A program made the position numbers and the translations under genes. DNA of 64,000 nucleotides from Octopus sinensis (Eukaryota): assembly GCF_006345805.1 (NCBI RefSeq), contig NC_043000.1:34410001-34474000 (forward strand), written 5' to 3'. Positions within the stretch are counted from its first letter, which is position 1. Each line of letters starts with the position of its first letter. The notes below the pieces were generated by a model. It saw nothing but the letters and a program-made list of their open reading frames with translations, was not told the DNA's origin and did no database searches. Below are positions 27,310-49,155 of this stretch, piece by piece.

Positions 27310-28033
27310 TAGTAGTGTTATTTTTATAGCGTGCTTTCACTTCACTGCCGAGCGCAGCTCTGTGTACCTTGGGTATGTTCTGTGATTTGCTGTGATTTGG
27401 TGACTGTATTGAAAATGTTTTGCGTAGGATGTATGCAGTGCCCAGTAGTGCAATTTTCTGTATGTTATATATATTTGTAAGTCCTGGTGTTTTTGTTATG
27501 TATTTGTCTGAATATTTTTTTATCATACCTAATGCGCCTACTATGATAGGAATTGTTTCTGTTTTAAAATTCCACATTCGAGTTACCTCTATTTCCAGGT
27601 CTTTGTATTTTGAAAGTTTCTCCATTTCTTTTAGAGAAACTTTGTCATCTGCTGGTATTGATACATTAATTAGAAAGCAGTTTTTTTCTTCATGATCTCT
27701 GACAACTATATCTGGCCTGTTGGCCTTAATTTCTCAATCTGTGTGTATTAGCATATCCCAGAGTATAATTGCTTTCTCGTTTTCTGTGACCTTTTCTATG
27801 CCATTTTTTTTTCTGTTGTTATTCCATAATGTTGGCATAGCTTCCAGTGTATCTAGGTCCTAACTCTGTCGTGTATGTGAATATATCCCTTCTTAGCCAG
27901 GACTGGGCAGCTAGAGATAATATGATTTATTGTTTCTTGTCCATCTCCACATATTCTGCAGTTACTTGTTATGTTTCTTTTCATTATATGTTTTTGGTAA
28001 TTTCTGGTGAGGAGGCTTTGGTCTTGTGTCGCA

Positions 28034-36031: not shown

Positions 36032-36061
<30 letters not shown>

Positions 36062-36076
<15 letters not shown>

Positions 36077-36330
36077 TGAGAATGTGTCTGTCTGTCTGTC
36101 TGTCTGTGTGTTTCCCTAAAACTTGAGAACTACACAACCAATTTTATTCAAATTTTACACATGCCTTACTTAGGGTCCGGGGAGTGTCATGGGCAAAGAA
36201 AAATGTTCAACTTCTTGCCTAGAGCGAGCCCATAGCAATATCATATCTTCTCCACTATTTCAGTATTACGTGTTAAAAGTGAAACAAAAACATTTCTCTA
36301 TTTTATGTCAGATGTTTTCACTTTAACAAT
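36062..36330 (+). mobile_element. Helitron-like 5' region, copy 1
   Basis: TATATAAAACTGAGAATGTG(TCTG)n...CAACCAATTTTATTCAAATTTTACAC; direct repeat of 44272-44530. Confidence 0.6.
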
Positions 36331-36549
36331 AAAAATAATAATAACAATTGAATTATATGTAGTAAATAATAATTAAAATCAAACTAAAGTATAATATAAT
36401 CGTAACATAACAAAAGTAAAAATAGCAATTGGTATAAAATTGCATCAATGATTTGAACTTGAATAAGTGGAATCACATGAATGGGAATAAATTAAAAATA
36501 AAATTAGTGTGCAGAAATGGAATAGTCCAGATGGATAATAAAAAATTAA

Positions 36550-36612
36550 ATTAAAGAAAAGACTATTGTCTATAAAGTATACAATGTAGAGAAAAAAGAA
36601 CATTTGAACAAC
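36550..36612 (+). pseudogene. Old Tx1-family ORF1 remnant, left half of the interrupted target
   Basis: IKEKTIVYKVYNVEKKEHLNN continues in frame at 43787 (LEESTFEKC) if one AACAAC is kept. Confidence 0.75.
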
Positions 36613-38533
36613 GCGTCGGAATCTATCCACGTGTGTTGTGAGTTATTTGTATGTGAAAATTGGAAAAAAAAAACTTAAAAATTGTCAAAAAATTGAATCG
36701 CGCGAGGCGTTTGCCGCTACGTGTTTGAACCTTTTATAGAAAGTGTGTCGACCCTCAAGTCATGGAGACTTACGCGGGGGTCGCCACAACAAAAAGTGAC
36801 GAGTCTCTTAGAATAAAAGAAGTGTTCTTTAGAAAAGAACAATTGAAGGAATACGAGAAGTTCGTCAAAAGGGAGGGTGACAGCGTGAAGCTGGTCCCGC
36901 CTGTGGAAACAATAGAAGAGAAAAATAACATGACGATAACGTATAGAACGCAAGATAGAAACACGAGAAAACTGGTGAGAGTGACGATTGAAGAAATAGA
37001 GAAATGTCTGGGGGACATCATGAAAAAAGCGACTTTTGTAGACAGAGGAAAGAAATATGGTACGGTGGAGGTGAGATGCGCAACAAAGGAAGTGGCGGCC
37101 TCATTGGCTTCCACTGTCCTGAAAGCGGAAAATTTCACCATGTGGCCGACGTATAAAGGAAGACGAGGGGTACGGGTAAGAGTCCCAAAGGTGCCCCCAA
37201 ATATTAAAACAGAAATGCTGGTAACAGCCATTATTGGGGCAGCAAAAGAGGAAGTAGAAATAGGGTCAATTAAGGAGACGAACGTTGTAAATTGGAAGGG
37301 ATTCGGAGTAGAGTTGTGGCTGATGGCCACAATGGAAGACATCGAAAGATTTCCCTTCCAAATAGAATAGAAAACGAGAAAACAATTAGTGTAATAGTGG
37401 AAGGCAGAAAACCGAATTGCTACCTGTGCGGGTCAAGAGGGCACATAAAAAAGGAATGTCCGCTGTATGAATTCACAGCGGAGCAAAAAGAGACACAAAG
37501 TGGAGAGAAGGAAAACGAACACGAAGGAAAGAACAGCGAAAACAAGGAAAAGGAAATAACGGAGAAACAACAAGAGAAGGGAAGTAACAGCGCACTGAAG
37601 GAAAATGAAAACAAAGGGAAGAAGATAGTAGAAAAGGAGCAAAATTCACAGGGTGCAGAAGTAGTGGAGAAGGAGCCAAGGCAGAAGCAAGAGAAAGAAA
37701 AGGAAAGTACATTAAAGGAAAGAGAAAAAGCAGGAAAAGAACAAGAGAAGGAACAGAACCAAGAGAAAGGAAAAGATGGTATGCAAAAAGGAAAAGAAAC
37801 AACAGGAAAGGAACTTAAGGCACAGGGTAGAGAGACGGCAGACAAAGAGCCAAAAAGACAAGAGAAGGAAAAAGAAAGAAGAGAAAGCAAAAAGAGAGAA
37901 AGAGAGAAACCGAGGGAGAGAAAAAAGAGGAAGTAAGTCCTAAGAGAAAAACTAGAGAAAACGTAGGTACGAATAGAAAATTCAAATACTATGGAACGTT
38001 GATCCATCACAGGCACTGTGAGGAGATGGAAGATTTAATAAACGTAACAAACGGATATACGTGGGTCAGGATGGGCACCGAATGGAAAGAAACAGGTGCA
38101 CTCGTCCACGAGAACGACGCCGAGGCGTTCATCGAGGCAGCTGGCAAGAACGTGTCAAAACATATGAAATGCCGACTTACAAGGTGGCCTCGAACGATGG
38201 AAGTTTACTCAGATTTGGTAGACATAATGGAGTATATATAAAAGAAAAGGTATTGTGAAAACTTTAATTTGGAAATGATAAAAAGAACTTTAAATTCTGA
38301 AAAAAAAAAAAGAAATGTTGAACTTTGTAAAACTTTTGAAATGTATGTTGAAAATGTAAAAAATGTTTTATTTGGAAAATATTGTTGACGAATAAAAAAC
38401 AAATGACGAAATGTAACCGCTCGATTTCGGGGAGCGAGTGGGCATTACACCACATTGTACAAACTTCATAATTCATTATTCATTTTCCCGATTGTATTGT
38501 CCCATCTATGTAGCCCCTAGTGGGTAATAATAA
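36613..38533 (+). mobile_element. ORF1-only non-autonomous Tx1-like retroelement (element A)
   Basis: Starts GCGTCGGAA like element B, encodes only ORF1, ends with a ~45-nt 3' terminus nearly identical to B's, and is flanked by AACAAC. Confidence 0.85.
36762..38241 (+). CDS. Gag-like ORF1 of element A (two frameshifts, near 37365 and before 37921)
   Basis: RRM-like RGKKYGTVEVR, zinc knuckle VEGRKPNCYLCGSRGHIKKEC, K/E-rich linker, C-terminal domain ending DIMEYI*. Confidence 0.8.
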
Positions 38534-38784
38534 AACAACGCGTCGGAAATCAATTTTTTGCGTTATTAGTAAGTTGATATATTTTTGCTCTCGTACTATT
38601 ATCTCTGTTATTATATACTGTTGGTCTACCTGTTTTGCCTATTGTTGTCTAACTGACGAAGTCAGCCTTCGCGCGAAGACTTCGCGTTGGTGTTCCCCCC
38701 TCAGTGGGGGAAAACTACAATTAATTTGGATTTACCAAAGGCTTCTTAAAGCCATTTGTTCAAGATGGAGTCTCTTATTCGCCC

Positions 38785-40135
38785 GTGACGAGCGAGGATG
38801 AATACCCGGCGTTGTCGCCAAGAAAAAAAGAGGCGTTGTCGCCAAGAAAAAAAGAGGCGTTGTCGCCGAAGAAAAAAGAGGCGGCGTCGCCCAAGAAAAT
38901 GGAAAAACCAGTACCAGCATCAACTCCAGCAAAAAAATTCGCTGAAGTGGCTGGGAAAAAGATCAAAAAAATAAATATAGAAAATTTTGGAAAATTTGCA
39001 GACTGTGTAAAAAAAGAAGGCACAGAAGTGACTGTGGCCACAAACATACAAAAACATGACGATATAGAAAAAAAAAGAATAATATATAAAACTTACGACA
39101 CAACGACAAAAATGATCCAAAAAATCGAAGAAAAAAAAATAGAGTTTTGTCTAAAACCTTTTATGGATAAAATAACGTATATAAACAGAGGAAAAAGATA
39201 CGGCACAGTGGAGGTGCGTTTTACTACGGAGGAGATAGCGAAGAAACTATCGATGGAGCCGATCAAAGCGGAAAACATGGTCTTACTACCATTGTATAAA
39301 GGAAAAAGGACGTCGAAAATTTCAATGAACAACATACCGCCAGAGGCAGATGCTGAATGTCTGGTGGCAGCAGTGATGGTAGGTCTGGAGGAAAAAATAA
39401 ACATCCTCCAGGCCACAGTGGAGGAAGAGGAGTTTTGGAAAGGGCAGAAAATAGTGATAGCCATTCAGGCGGAGGTGCAAACACTGGAAGAAATTCCAGA
39501 AACGGTAAAGATTAGTGAAGACGAGAAAATAACAGTTTTCGTGGAGGGCAGGAAGCCGAGGTGCTTCGGCTGCGGCAAGAAGGGTCATGTAAGGGCGGAA
39601 TGCCAACCCCAACCCAAACCGCAGGAAGCACCTAAGCCAAAAGAAAAAGAAGATAATGTGTCACCAGAAGCAGCGTCGGACGGCCCAGAAGGGAAGACTG
39701 AAGGTGTGGAGGTGACGGTGACAGCAGAACCAGCGGCGGAGGAAAAAAAGAGCGAGGAAAAGATAAATGAGGAGGGGTGGGCAAAAATTACGGAAAAAAA
39801 AAAAAGAAAAACGGAAACCACCCCTCCCAGAGTAATTTTAAAAAAGAAAAAAGAGTCAATGAACTCGTATATGGCCGTAAAGGCAGCAAATAGCAGACTC
39901 GGAAACGTGTTGGCAGCCATGGCCAAAGTGGAGAAAGTAGTAAAAAAAACGACTTTGTAATTTACAGAATAGGCCGGAAGGATTACGGGCGATAAAGTCA
40001 GAATTCTTCCATGACGTAGGCCCACTTAGATTGGATGTGACATCTCCACATATATTCGAGGGCCTACGTCAGACTCCCCCACGAGGCCCAGAAAAAGAGT
40101 TAGAAGAACAAGAGAAAACCGAACCACTGATATAA
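38785..40135 (+). CDS. Gag-like ORF1 of element B (main frame to 39960, frameshifted tail to ~40135)
   Basis: NRGKRYGTVEVRF, VEGRKPRCFGCGKKGHVRAEC (CCHC); homologous to element A ORF1. Confidence 0.85.
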
Positions 40136-40143
40136 GGTAAGTA

Positions 40144-43100
40144 ATGGATTACATTTATGTTGGTTGTTTGAATGTGCGCGGCCTGGGAGCAGGCTGGAAG
40201 CAAGGTCGCTTCCTGCATGATATCAGGTCGCGTAATTTAGATGTTATTGTTGCTACAGAAACCCGGTTAGAGGGGCCAAGAGGTCTACTCCCGCTGTTTG
40301 ACGGCTACGAGAGTTTTTTTCTCCTGGCAGTCCTACAGGCGGGAGTGGGGTGTTGGTCCTATTAAAAAGAAACCGGGTTTCTGAGAAAAAGTTAATTTTT
40401 GCAGATCCAGAAGGTAGGCTGGTCGTCATGGATTTGACGTTCAGTAATGGTAAAGTTATCAGACTGGTTGCAATTTACGCACCCAACCATACAGGGCAAA
40501 GTGATTATTTTCGTGAACTAGAAAACTTTCTTGGTACTTCGCATTCATTAGTGGTGCTAGGAGACTTTAACACACATTTGCAAAGCGGATGTAGATTGTG
40601 TTGGCTCGCGTCCAGATAGAAAAGGCAACAGTGGCTTCATGGAACTGCTAAGCCGCTTTGAGCTAGCAGATCCTTATAGGCTGGAATTTCCGAACGCTCC
40701 ATTGTGGACATGGTCAAACAGCGACGGATCTTCCAGGTCATATTTAGATAGAATACTAATTAGAAAAGTAGACAGTAAAATAGCTAAGTGTCAACAGTTT
40801 TACCCGATCAGCTACAGTGATCATAAAATGGTCACTTGTAAGCTTGACATAGATAAGGTTAAAAATAGAGGATCCGGTTACTGGAAACTTAATACGTCCC
40901 TTTTGGCGATTAAGGAGTACAAAGACCGGATTAGGAATATAATTCAGAGGGCACTATCTGGTACCATCATTAATAACAAATGGTGGTACGCCCTCAAACG
41001 AGCCATCAAGTTTGAGTCTATTAGATATAGCATAGGAGTAGTGGCTAGAGAGGCTAGAAGGGAAACTACTCTAGTTAAGGAATTAGAGGAAGCCATGAAA
41101 ACTGGCTCTGCGGCTCAGGTGGCGTCCAAGAGACTGGTGTTAAACCAGCACCTCGAGGCCAAACACATGGGCTGCATTGTCAGGGCTAGAATCCGCCATA
41201 TGGGATGTGAAGGAATCAACGCCGTGAGATGGGCCCGAGTGGTGGAAGCTCGCATGGTAACGATGCCACGATTCGATCTTTGACGAACCAACAAGGTGAG
41301 TTGATAAACGAACCCGAGGAGATGTGTGAGGCCTTTCAGGAGCACTTCGCTCAGCTTTTCGGTGAGTGCGGCGGACTGGATAGGAGGAGGGCCTTTACGG
41401 ACCTACTCGACGGGCTGCCGCGCTTATCGGGGCGAGATGCGGAGGGCTGTGAAGGGCCAATCACGCCTGAGGAGGTGGTTGAGGCAATGGCGGACTGCGG
41501 CGCGGGCAAGGCGCCGGGTTTGGATGGTCTACCCTATGAGTTATATAAGAGTATGCCAGACTTGTTCGGGCACCTACTGGCGGAGGTCTATGCGAACTGG
41601 CAGCAGAACGGGCTTATACCCAGATCTGTGCGCCGGGGAGTAGTGACTCTCGTCAGAAAGGACCGACCGAGCAAGGGGGAGTGCATTGATAATTTCAGGC
41701 CCATCACTCTGCTAAACACAGAGTTGAAGATTTTGGCCAAAGTGTTATCGAAAAGATTGGCGCGTGTCGCGGATGGTCTGATCGGAGAGGCACAGACATG
41801 TGCCGTTCCGGGCAGATCCATTCAGGATAATCTCCATCTAATGCGGTACACTATAGAGGGGTTTAATAGTGATTCTGGCAAGGGTGGGGCACTGGTCCAT
41901 TTAGACCAATCTAAAGCTTTTGATAGGGTCGACCATCGTTACCTGGTATCTGCCCTGGCACAGTTCGGGCTGAGCCTTGGCTTCCTCAGGTGGATTATCC
42001 AAATTTATGATAACATCGACTCGGTAGTTCGGGTGAACGGCTTCTTGTCGAAGCCGTTCAAAATCAAACGCTCGGTTCGTCAAGGGTCCGCTCTCCCCGC
42101 TTTTGTACGTGATGGCTCTTGAGCCATTACTGCGAAAACTGAGCGGCATCCCGAGACAGCCAGGTAATGGAAAATCAGTGTCAGCGTACGCGGATGACAT
42201 CACCATCATCGTAACCGAAATGGACCACCTATGTAAAGTAGGCAAGGCCATAGAGGTTTACGAGACGGTGACAGGAGCAAAAGTTAATCGCGAAAAGTCA
42301 GTCGGCTTGCAACTCGGCACCTGGAGAGGCAAGTCGATGCCTCCTGACAGCGTCGTGGGACGTTGGACGGAGGGTCCGATTAAACTGCTAGGGGTCTGGT
42401 TCGGTCCAGACCTCCAAATAGAGAAGAATTGGGGCGAGGTAACGAGCAAGTGGCTGCAGTAGCCAAGACCTGGTCTTGGCGGTGGCTATCCCTGAAAGGG
42501 AGGGCGGAGGTGGCCAATGTGTTTATCGCATCGGTTATCACCTACCGCCTTTCCGTCGTTCCTTGCCCTGATTCGTGGTTGATCAAGTTGGAAAGACAGC
42601 TCTTCTACTTCTTGTGGAAGGGCGGGAAACCACTTGTGAAACGCTCTACTTGCTGTCAACAACCGTTAAAGGGTGGGCTAGGGATGCCTTGGCTGATGAT
42701 GCGCAGACATGCGCTGAGGTTAAGACATCTGTGGCTCTACCTGGATGGTGAACGGGTGTGGTCTTCGCTAGCAAAACTGATGTTTCCCAAGTTCACTAGT
42801 TTCGGTGGATGGGAAACCTGGCTGAATCGTAGATCGAAACTTGGTACTTGGTACACGGAGTGTCGCAAGGCTCTCCTGCTATTCCGTCGCTCGGGCAACG
42901 CCTGCGGTGGGGGTTCCACCACATTCTTCTATAGAGGGTTGGTAGAGGCGGAATGTGAAGATACCTTGGGGGAAACCCTAGGTCTCGACGATAATCAGCT
43001 GGCCAGTCTGTTCCGACGTACGTTCGAGCCGAGGACACTGGACAACTTCCAGAAGTCTCTGGCATGGCAATGCTACAGAGGAGCTCTACCTGTTCGGGAT

Positions 43101-43538
43101 AAACTCGCAAGGCACGGTGGCCAAGACAGTCCGATATGTCCAAGATGCGGGCGGGATAGGGAAACCGTCCCGCACGCTATTGTTCATTGTCCGGACGTGT
43201 CTGAGGTGTGGGTTTATGCCGAACAGCTGTTGTCAGGTACACGAAGAGTACAGCTGTCGACTGAGTCGATTACAAAAATTGACCCACCGGATTTCCTCGT
43301 GAATGAAGGTAAGTTTCGTTTTCTCGTTGTAGTAGCAATTGCGAAAGAGGTGATATGGAAGACGAGAATGAAAGGTGTACAGTCAGGCAAGTTCATCTCC
43401 GGCCCTGGTTTGATGAAGTATTTCATCTTTCACCTGAAAAGGAAGATAGGGCTGGAGAGAATATGCCTGACTAGGAGAGTGTATGAAGAACGATGGAAGG
43501 ATGTAGCACGAAAGTTGCGAGTGAAAGATACAACATAA
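40144..43538 (+). CDS. ORF2 of element B: APE endonuclease, reverse transcriptase and C-terminal zinc finger (split by several frameshifts)
   Basis: LNVRGL, ATET, AIYAPN, LGDFN, SYLDRI, SDH, GYWKLN, KAPGLDG, FRPITLLN, LDQSKAFDRVDH, VRQG, YADD, GGLG, CPRC...HAIVHC. Confidence 0.93.
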
Positions 43539-43786
43539 ATGTAATACCAAGCGCAACCAAAAGTATCAGTGGGGAGGCGGGGCTCGTGGGGTCCGAGCTA
43601 AACCCGCACCCACTCCACCCGTAATGTCTTCCGGTCTGTCCCATCATTCGATTTCTGTCCATTTATTGTAATTCATGAAAATTTTTTAATTCGATTTATT
43701 GTAAAAACCCATTCGTGTGTCTGACCCCATCATCAGATTGTATTGTCCCATCTATGTTCGCCCCTTGTGGGTAATAATAAAACAAC

Positions 43787-44085
43787 CTGGAGGAAAGCAC
43801 CTTCGAAAAGTGTCCTGGTGCGACTATGAAAGATATCTAACCAGAGGCGGTAAATTCGCCACAATAGAAGCAAGGTTCGAGTCAACGGAGCGTGCAAGGG
43901 AGTACTCGATTCGAACTTGCAAAGTGGAAATATTTTATTTTTACCTTTATATCTGAGACGTAGGACGTCCCGGATAAAAATTTAAAATGCCCCTTCCCCA
44001 GAAGTAGAGGTAGGTTGGATTGTAGCCACACTTCTATACAAGAGGGAGGACAAGATACAATTGATCGAAGTTACAAGAGACGGGC
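43787..44085 (+). pseudogene. Old Tx1-family ORF1 remnant, right half of the interrupted target
   Basis: LEESTFEKC.../RYLTRGGKFATIEARF.../SGNILFLPLYLRRRTSRIKI*NAPSPEVEVGWIVAT aligns with B ORF1 YINRGKRYGTVEVRF...NMVLLPLYKGKRTSKI. Confidence 0.8.
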
Positions 44086-44231
44086 TAACAATTCCAGTCT
44101 GTTATATATTTTGAGTATTGTTATCACTAGCGATATCAAGATATAACTTTGTATTTTGTATTTTATGTGTATATGTATATATATAGATGTACATGTAATA
44201 TGTACACATATATATGCACATATATACATGC

Positions 44232-44272
44232 ACTAGCACTATGACCCGGCAACGACGGGTCATAATGCTAGT
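44232..44272. mobile_element. Helitron-type 3' terminus, palindromic with CTAG at both ends
   Basis: ACTAGCACTATGACCCG-GCAACGA-CGGGTCATAATGCTAGT (17-bp arms, one mismatch). Confidence 0.7.
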
Positions 44273-44555
44273 ATATATATAAAACTGAGAATGTGTGTCT
44301 GTCTGTGTGTTTCCCTAAGACTTGAGAACTACACAACCAATTTCATTCAAATTTTACACATGCCTTACTTAGGGTCCGGGGAGTGTCATGGGCAAAAACA
44401 TTTATTTCTAACTTCTTGCCTAGGGCGAGCCCACAGCAATATTATATCTTCTCCTCTATTTCAGTATTATGTGTTAAAAGTGAAACAAAAACATCTCTCT
44501 ATTGTAATGTAAGATATTTTCACTTTAATACTGAAAGTATTAAAGTCAAACTATT
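44272..44555 (+). mobile_element. Helitron-like 5' region, copy 2, directly after CTAG
   Basis: Direct repeat of 36062-36330. Confidence 0.6.
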
Positions 44556-44820: not shown

Positions 44821-45580
44821 TCATCATCATTCATCATTGTTCGACCGTGGTCGAGACAATGGAATTTACCATGTTGCGCCAGACTTCACGGTCCATCATA
44901 GCATTACGGAGGTCCTGTTGCTGGATGCCTGTATCCCTGGAGATTACATCAGGGTAGGAGAGTGTGCGCCCTCTGGTGTTGCGAGTAGATGGCTTCCAGA
45001 GGAGAAGAGTAGAAATTACTTCTTTTTCAGCTCTACAACAATGTTCAGCAAACTGGACTCTCCTACCTTTCACAAGAGATGACACAGGTGGTAATTTCCC
45101 ATATATTTGCATTTTAGTTGGATGGCGCCTCCACGAGAGATTTTGAGCTCTCATAAGGAGGCGAGTGTAGGTTCCATCCAACCGCCTCTCAAGCTTCTTT
45201 GATAACGTCCAGGTTTCTGAGCCATATAGTAGGATTGGTTCGACTGTGGCTTTGAATATTTCAAGTTTGAAGTCTCTACTTAGATTTGATGACCAGATCT
45301 TATGCATGTCATTACAGGCTGACCAGGCCATACCATTTCTAGTTAGAAAGTCTTTTCCAGATGATGATATGTATGACCCAAGATATTTATAATCAGAAAC
45401 CATATTTAAAGGTGCACTGTTGAGAGTGTGGATGATGCAATCACTGTTGGACAGGCACTTGTTTATGTATTCAGTTTTGGTCTCATTGAGGTAAAGACCT
45501 ACACAATTTGAGGCTTGTTCAAGAGATTGTAAGAGAGACTGGGCATTGGAGAGAGAATCACTGATAAGAGCGATGTCGTC
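44821..45580 (-). mobile_element. RTE/RTEX-group LINE 3' segment with (TGA)n tail
   Basis: DDIALIS...GLYLNETKTE...YKYLGS...ILLYGSETWTL...MMDREVWR, open to the stop at 44834. Confidence 0.9.
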
Positions 45581-48592: not shown

Positions 48593-49155
48593 CTACATAC
48601 ATTGGAAGCTATGCCAACATTATGGAATAACAACAGAAAAAAGATGGTATAGGCACACACCAGAAAAGGTCACAGAAAACGAGAAAGCAACCATACTCTG
48701 GGATATGCCGATACACACAGATAGAGAAATTAAGGCCAACAGACCAGATATAGTTGTCAGAGATCATGAAGAAAAAAAATGCTTTCTAATTGATGTATCA
48801 ATACCGGCAGATGACAACGTGTCTCTAAAAGAAATGGAGAAACTCTCAAAATACAAAGACCTGGAAATAGAGGTAACTAGAATGTGGACCTGAAAACAGA
48901 AACAATTCCTATCATAGTAGGTGCATTAGGCATGATAAAAAAATATTCAGACAATACATAACAAAAACACCAGGACTTACAAACACATATAACATACAGA
49001 AAATTGCACTACTAGGCACTGCACACATCCTACGCAGAACACTTTCCATACAATAACCATCAGAGCATCACAACAAATCACAGCACATACCCAAGGCACA
49101 CAGAGCTGCGTTCGGTAGTGAAGTGAAAGCACGCTATAAAAATAAAACTACTGAA
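48592..49155 (+). mobile_element. R4/Dong 5'-truncated copy with 3' UTR, inside (AAT)n
   Basis: YIHWKLC...ILWDMPIHTDREIKANRPDIVV...LIDVSIP...EKLSKYKDL; (AAT)n on both sides. Confidence 0.92.

Follow-up and report, generated by a model that had tools for sequence, protein, structure and literature searches.

The 64,000-nt stretch of Octopus sinensis DNA analyzed here, referred to as the window, contains a series of nested mobile elements on its forward strand (Table 1). Between the two arms of a Helitron lie a unit of the family that we call A and, directly downstream, a full-length LINE of the family named F1. The exact 5' end of the Helitron left arm is blurred by a TA run. The ORF2 of the F1 copy encodes APE endonuclease, reverse transcriptase (RT) and zf-RVT domains and is frameshifted in the window. 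Elsewhere in the window, a second Helitron copy begins right after the CTAG of the first one (44272-44543), a 227-nt inverted pair with 94% identity occupies positions 27571-27797 and 48662-48888, and a minus-strand open frame of 248 codons (44834-45580) resembles another retroelement remnant; the output of a whole-window repeat finder is dominated by microsatellites.

Table 1. Features of the family A insertion and its surroundings (positions in the window)
Feature	Positions	Strand	Evidence or remarks
Helitron left arm (target, ~1.04-kb non-autonomous Helitron)	36060-36606	+	88-95% to 12 of 12 empty-site loci
Left target-site duplication/head, AACAACGCGTCGGAA	36607-36621	+	Exact repeat at 38534-38548; head varies between copies
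Family A ORF1-only body (5' UTR, ORF1, 292-nt 3' UTR)	36622-38533	+	Full-length copies 92-99%
ORF1 of the A copy, with two private single-base gaps	36762-38241	+	ATG 36762, TAA 38241, three frames
CCHC zinc knuckle of A ORF1	37415-37462	+	PF00098, E 9e-06
C-terminal domain of A ORF1, predicted ferredoxin-like alpha/beta fold	37969-38238	+	AlphaFold2 pLDDT 82
3' tail common to F1 and all ORF1-only families, weak predicted hairpin	38490-38533	+	94% over 51 columns to 43736-43786
Right target-site duplication, also head of the F1 copy	38534-38548	+	Exact repeat
Full-length LINE F1, putative L1/Tx1 group, likely ORF2p donor family	38549-43787	+	Pfam RVT_1, zf-RVT
F1 ORF1	38765-40135	+	
F1 ORF2	40144-43538	+	
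F1 tail	43736-43786	+	
Helitron right arm	43788-44271	+	Hairpin 44243-44261, CTAG 44268-44271
~300-bp piece limited to the younger Helitron variant, decayed fragment of a related ORF1	43788-44083	+	tblastn

The initial annotation of this DNA had described a 1.9-kb ORF1-only unit that lacks any trace of ORF2 and shares both ends with its neighbor. The first part of this description is borne out, as tblastn searches with the endonuclease, RT and C-terminal pieces of ORF2 produced no match within the A unit. At the DNA level, the sole substantial match between the unit and the neighboring F1 is the 3' tail, which is nearly the same in both elements as had been claimed (94% over 51 columns); the only further match is a 35-nt segment at 83% inside ORF1. 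The nine bases GCGTCGGAA that had been taken for a common, autonomous-type 5' end are indeed found at both elements (36613 and 38540), but they belong to the 15-bp direct repeat that flanks the unit and are thus derived from the duplicated target, not from the family. Accordingly, the first 10-25 bases vary between copies; of the 107 A copies whose 5' end is present, 24 start with TGGAGGAAA, which is the target itself, and 2 with GCGTCGGAA. The 15-bp repeat in the window suggests that A most likely inserted into the 5' end of F1.

Family A is a young, multi-copy family of ORF1-only non-LTR retrotransposons. A 32-mer spanning the ORF1 stop codon and the 3' UTR has 116 exact matches genome-wide, and analogous junction searches found 73 ORF1/ORF2 junctions for F1, 85 for family B2 and 73 for family C (all reversed controls 0); these counts cover exact matches only and are thus lower bounds, with a degenerate pattern used for B2. 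A genome DNA search with the unit revealed 706 candidate places, and among the 38 of them that were scored there are dozens of full-length copies at 92-99% identity and a second class of copies at 70-74%. The loci studied in detail were picked because they hold A. Intact copies encode a single ORF1 frame of 493 aa from ATG, and an open ORF1 is kept in 7 of the 30 best copies and in 13 of 100 array copies. The two frameshifts noted previously in the window copy, near 37366 and 37917, are both present; each is a private single-base gap that occurs in 1 of 30 aligned copies, and the base missing at 37917 is present in contigs of all four public runs compared. Half of the 1-bp deletions in A ORF1 fall in homopolymer runs, which make up 24% of the gene, thus some of the breaks may be assembly errors. 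The element is also represented in public-run contigs from four studies with two organism labels, one contig covering 36762-38433. Nine close database proteins are all labelled Octopus vulgaris, the named relatives of A ORF1 come from Octopus and Argonauta, and these ORF1s are annotated in databases as uncharacterised Octopus genes. In one locus (L043), two tandem chimeras join the 5' end of family G (178 bp) to A from position 380.

The association of ORF1 with downstream regions was analyzed for 114 intact ORF1 N-terminal regions, a set that included diverged ORF1 and RT matches beyond the close A copies. In 88 cases ORF1 is followed by the tail, in 18 by an endonuclease, and 8 remained unclassified. 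All 18 endonuclease-followed regions belong to clusters that are 30-36% identical to A; none of the examined regions with at least 59% identity to A precedes an endonuclease, and the six unclassified regions of A's clade have no endonuclease downstream in the sequence examined. On the ORF1 tree, from which 8 frameshift-affected near-duplicates were left out, A, B and B2 form a single clade (100/100) on a stem of more than one change per site and without an autonomous member; C, E and G constitute a second clade, a lone ORF1-only type represents a third, and the groups of the autonomous F1 and F2 lie apart. A protein from O. bimaculoides (P0011) is sister to the A clade (SH-aLRT 99). The AU test (p 0.26, 16 versus 12 rows, with 6 unclassified rows taken as ORF1-only) neither rejects nor establishes a single origin of all ORF1-only families, so that one loss of ORF2 and several losses are both compatible with the data. 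Altogether, at least four further ORF1-only families carry the ~45-nt tail, namely B, B2, C and E/G.

These data bear on the simplest explanation of the unit, according to which it is a dead relic left by a single or recent deletion within the neighboring LINE. The shared tail, the homology of the two ORF1s and the frameshifts of the window copy would all be expected from such an event, and the initial annotation, which preferred an independent lineage, allowed for it in case the unit were single-copy and its ORF1 elsewhere always followed by ORF2. The 116 junction copies, the separate ORF1 clade, the purifying selection described below and the low identity of ~35% between the A and F1 ORF1s, a divergence already recognized in that annotation, contradict the deletion scenario, which we reject as having practically no chance of being correct.

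The ORF1 proteins of family A consist of an N-terminal domain, a CCHC knuckle, a Glu/Lys-rich linker and a C-terminal domain. In a Pfam scan of 56 ORF1 relatives zf-CCHC alone was matched, and a PDB sequence search with ORF1 retrieved zinc knuckles only. The C-terminal domain of A had been proposed to differ from that of the neighbor. In terms of sequence this is the case: neither A nor C C-terminal domains could be aligned by profiles with those of F1 and F2 (probability 0.05 for A versus F1), and A and C profiles match each other weakly (probability 8). However, the C-terminal models of A and F1 (pLDDT 82 and 79) have the identical beta-alpha-beta-beta-alpha(-beta) order. Foldseek returned nothing at E 0.001 for either model, and the best VIA-align Z-scores, 7.4 for A and 6.1 for F1, were both obtained with the same ferredoxin-like structures and none reached 8. 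Ferredoxin-like arrangements are common, thus the agreement in fold is no proof of homology or function; judging by the models, the C-terminal domain of A is probably a diverged homologue of that of F1 rather than a new domain. As to the N-terminal domain, the ESM Atlas returned unnamed arthropod CCHC clusters (0.91-0.92) and a cluster of the ZCCHC3 RNA-binding domain (0.90), the latter being a lead only.

The ORF1 of family A is under strong purifying selection, as revealed by the dN/dS comparison that the initial annotation had recommended. Between A and B, dS is 0.93-1.0 and dN/dS is 0.18-0.20 overall, with 0.13-0.15 in the N-terminal and 0.16-0.19 in the C-terminal domain. Within family A (100 copies), the (n/N)/(s/S) ratio of N-terminal variants decreases from 0.72 for singletons to 0.38 for variants present in 2-4 copies and 0.07 for those in at least 5 copies (32 synonymous and 8 replacement), while shared variants are weakly constrained in the linker (0.83) and the C-terminal domain (0.59). 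Nearly neutral singletons together with purged shared variants indicate that selection acts on the copies that spread. The pattern fits the spread of copies with a good ORF1 only, which implies the use of ORF1 in cis.

Three further features, absent from the initial annotation, are the insertion target in a Helitron, the arrays and the sister families. Helitrons start with 5' TC, end with a 3' hairpin and CTRR, and insert between A and T without duplication. When the two flanks of the A-F1 pair are put together (36060-36606 with 43788-44271), they yield a repeat of 1.04 kb that has such ends: in 11 of 12 empty loci the copies begin A/TC, and in 11 of 12 they terminate with the hairpin plus CTAG/T, which characterizes the target as a non-autonomous Helitron. 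Families A, F1, B, B2, C and E/G share one insertion site within this Helitron. The young empty site has 385 exact occurrences, there are 113 filled tail-to-arm junctions, and an older Helitron variant that lacks ~300 bp accounts for 143 exact empty sites. The additional piece of the younger variant (43788-44083) is similar in tblastn to the ORF1 of F1 (38% over 53 aa, E 1e-08) and of C (E 3e-05); the downstream half of the present target consists of its first bases, and no source family was found for it. Older A copies occur in the older Helitron variant and younger ones in the younger variant (10 of 10 versus 1 of 48 loci in the older variant), and the same holds for older and younger F1 copies (9 of 9 versus 3 of 25); this old/young match of A and F1 may reflect only their shared age. 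A shift of endonuclease specificity between the old and young sites was rejected, since the A-rich flank upstream is the same in both and a mere change in the downstream part of the Helitron may account for the difference. In family C (and E), the joint with the left arm of the Helitron lies ~7 bases before that of A and is invariant across 15 loci (L046-L050, L063, L068 and others).

Since most A copies reside within a Helitron and the order C-A-F1 recurs, A could also have been spread passively, as Helitron cargo or via tandem or segmental duplication, without retrotransposition of its own. Two arrays on C7 look duplicated, the copies in L038 and L039 and the two copies in L079 are near-identical, and for 14 of 53 array copies the closest relative lies within the same array. 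On the other hand, the distances between Helitron flanks are uncorrelated with those between the A copies that they carry (Mantel rho 0.08, p 0.27, 36 loci), flank divergence is twice that of A (0.049 versus 0.024), the distance within arrays (0.024) equals that between arrays (0.026), and the 385 empty young sites contrast with the 113 exact filled ones. Moreover, truncated and off-target copies have duplications of their own, which, together with the unrelated flank and cargo distances, shows that A moves independently. Passive spread is therefore highly improbable and rejected as the main route, although a minor share remains attributable to it. The near-identical array pairs located ~100 kb apart, at 96.72 and 96.84 Mb of C7 and at 70.94 and 71.03 Mb of C9 (L039 and L038), are either segmental or assembly duplications.

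The insertions of A bear the marks of target-primed reverse transcription, namely target-site duplications and 5' truncation. Full-length off-target copies (L002, L006, L017) and truncated copies (L064, L071, L086) are flanked by 14-18-bp duplications, and the array in L038 by a 20-bp duplication. Among 52 non-tandem copies, direct repeats of at least 12 nt flank 31, compared with 9 expected by permutation, and the observed mean was reached in 0 of 5000 permutations. The remaining 21 copies lack a 12-nt repeat, and the heads of several are unlike that of the downstream neighbor, which suggests that heads are both inherited and copied. Off-target copies bear a head beyond their duplication, thus heads appear to travel with the RNA. 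In locus L110, four A copies of different haplotypes carry the rare head of the 3'-most copy, and the same is observed in L065-67. In L104 and L075, A is inserted in the 5' end of C with a 16-bp duplication.

Tandem arrangement is frequent. Among 112 A hits that extend to the tail, the tail is followed by the start of F1 in 33, by another A in 32, by the Helitron arm in 22, by B2 in 7, by B in 6, by other DNA in 5, by G or C in 4, by internal pieces in 2 and by F2 in 1. Mixed-family clusters account for 39 of 166 on C1-C16, and the largest array comprises at least 6 B2 and 9 A units plus F1 (16 or more units). An ORF1-only unit lies directly before F in 52 junctions and after it in 12 (p 5e-07), and genome-wide, on C1-C16, an ORF1-only unit precedes F1 in 25 cases and follows it in 5, of 60 F1 copies. 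These mixed head-to-tail arrays are best read as built mainly by separate insertions, one after another, each into the 5' head of an element already in place. The main rival of this reading is template jumping, which is known for R2: ORF2p would copy F1 RNA and then jump end-to-end onto co-packaged ORF1-only RNAs, generating a whole array in a single event. Such jumps would explain why F1 occupies the 3' end with the ORF1-only units before it, and why neighboring units are of mixed haplotype and family. We nevertheless regard single-event arrays as rather unlikely, because the rare head of the resident is found on bodies of different lineages (L110, L065-67), as fits copying from the target, and because A also occurs alone in the Helitron, with the 22 tails mentioned above meeting its arm directly.

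As for the enzyme that mobilizes A, several features point to F1. Intact natural ORF2 frames are present in F1, for example 1121 aa in L044, whose best PDB match is human L1 ORF2p (E 5e-65). The family has the APE endonuclease, RT and C-terminal zinc finger of the L1 group along with similarity to it, and its preference for another repeat and about 15-bp duplication correspond to Tx1-type targeting; no named Tx1 sequence is among the 120 RT relatives of F1 listed. We therefore place F1 in the L1/Tx1 group, where the putative Tx1 assignment derives from domain architecture and target choice and not from a phylogeny. The tail of A ends with AATAATAAAAC and is not a poly(A). Across the families, the hairpin predicted for the tail has a low stability of -6.5 to -7.9 kcal/mol, and a different fold is predicted for the tail of B2. 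The common tail, insertion site and age classes suggest, indirectly and from sequence comparison, that A is likely copied in trans by the ORF2p of F1, which may strictly recognize the 3' end. Because other autonomous families (F2 and the L143/L146/L149 types) have the related tail GCCCC-x-GTGGGTAATAA, F1 is the helper that we infer, and one of these families, or several, might serve instead. The ORF1 of A is no nearer to that of F1 than to theirs, and A precedes F2 in L031; yet the A tail is 94% identical to that of F1, both families share the same Helitron site and age classes, and the L143/L146/L149 types are found at other targets, which makes a different helper improbable.

Further elements of this group were observed. 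A short repeat resembling a SINE is seen in L035 near 9223, in L050 near 2398 (oriented) and at many of the 47 unassigned tails. Two of its copies are 84% identical over 215 bp, and it ends in a similar tail, GCCCCTTGTGG..TAAAGAAAT, thus this LINE group may also serve non-coding riders. Other autonomous relatives (L143, L144, L153, L147-L148) are arranged in their own tandems at other fixed targets, with B2 units among them. In runs X1 (depth 1325) and X5, contigs join 40368 to 41003 and represent an internally deleted F1 relative with the endonuclease partly missing.

Taken together, we consider it quite probable that A maintains a selected ORF1 of its own, that the encoded protein likely packages the RNA of A, and that the RT of F1 likely copies this RNA in trans. 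Under the proposed mechanism, transcription would start a few bases upstream of the body, within the duplicated target, so that each RNA would carry a target-like head. ORF1p would act in cis upon its own RNA. The ORF2p of F1 would bind the ~45-nt tail, nick AAC/A just past the A-rich stretch and prime reverse transcription there, and at the 5' joint the head might base-pair with the target duplication. Since a resident element would present its own head as a target, new copies of any family would be added in front of that element, and arrays would grow in the 5' direction.

The system bears on the reasons for the existence of ORF1-only LINEs and for their need of a separate ORF1p. We tentatively suggest, giving it somewhat less than even weight, that a single site-specific LINE sustains a long-lived guild comprising at least 2-3 deep ORF1-only lineages predating the split from O. 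bimaculoides, which compete for its ORF2p, outnumber it ~4:1 by junction counts, land on its 5' head and diversify the ORF1 C-terminal domain to capture ORF2p; array-forming safe-harbour niches, and not telomeres as such, would then favour the loss of ORF2. The coexistence of young families, intact copies, an intact partner ORF2, a 45-nt tail and a short target makes the cis requirement for ORF1p, tail recognition and cross-talk directly testable. In addition, the idea that repeated loss of ORF2 is favoured in array-forming niches can be tested here independently, away from telomeres and outside the Jockey clade.

With an ORF1p but no ORF2, a constant junction, marks of target-primed reverse transcription and a selected ORF1, A is an ORF1-encoding non-autonomous LINE. 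HAL1s in the strict sense derive from mammalian L1, encode an ORF1p with coiled-coil, RRM and CTD domains, and have a poly(A) tail; they are mammalian and mostly old, and Bao and Jurka reportedly found in 2010 that HAL1 ORF1p evolves faster than that of L1. HeT-A, in the strict sense a Jockey-clade element found at telomeres only, is tied to telomere biology. The analogy with HAL1 and HeT-A drawn in the initial annotation therefore holds for the ORF1-only type and not for either element in the strict sense: in A, zf-CCHC is the sole Pfam match, there is no poly(A) and the relatives are from cephalopods (Octopus, Argonauta), while the copies sit inside chromosomes and the partner ORF2 is closest to that of L1 among solved structures. 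In the available part of his account, Kojima lists HeT-A (Jockey), HAL1 (L1) and Ag-Sponge (CR1) as ORF1-encoding non-autonomous LINEs (PMC5786205). Like A, HAL1 is described in the portion consulted as non-autonomous, encoding ORF1p only and derived from an L1-group LINE with several origins (PMC5753468); A differs in that its host is an invertebrate, its ORF1 is of the CCHC type, the shared tail is short and not a poly(A), insertion is site-specific, arrays are formed, and young copies (97-99%) have open frames. Ag-Sponge from Anopheles, the third type, belongs to the CR1 clade, and the available text mentions neither site specificity nor arrays for it (PMC5786205).

In the open-access literature, a scope that leaves aside Repbase, Dfam and subscription journals, we found no ORF1-only Tx1 family, no Helitron-targeted LINE and no ORF1-only case of the L1/Tx1 group outside mammals; the comparison also took in parts of PMC11203168 and PMC4176376. 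A study of O. vulgaris repeats reports 13 active L1-Tx1 families, and its main text, as far as available, does not mention ORF1 (PMC13282606). For Tx1 LINEs that target non-autonomous DNA transposons, the accessible text provides the examples of Tx1L in Tx1D of Xenopus and of Tx1-Mar with SINEU in Mariner-N4 of crocodilians, including a non-autonomous partner with the same target and tandem insertions around the duplication (PMC4494074); that partner is a non-coding SINE, whereas in the octopus a Helitron is targeted and the partners are protein-coding, ORF1-only families. Tandem elements can also arise by double insertion, as outlined for R1 and the P element, where a preferred site and its duplication remake the target (10.1101/158386, in part); the octopus tandems differ in that several families are mixed and seeded at the head of the resident. 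The closest parallel is HeT-A with TART/TAHRE in Drosophila, for which the part of the source consulted describes head-to-tail arrays in which ORF1-only families stand together with autonomous relatives, new ORF1-only families arising from ORF1-only lineages, repeated ORF2 loss in telomeric arrays, and a share of about 40% ORF1-only among telomeric families (PMC13534243). Those elements belong to Jockey and occupy chromosome ends, whereas the octopus elements are of the putative L1/Tx1 group, occupy hundreds of interstitial Helitron sites, generate target-site duplications and have no known host service. Every ingredient has a precedent, the combination and the clade appear to be new, and the guild in the octopus replicates, within interstitial Helitrons, the arrangement known from HeT-A/TART.
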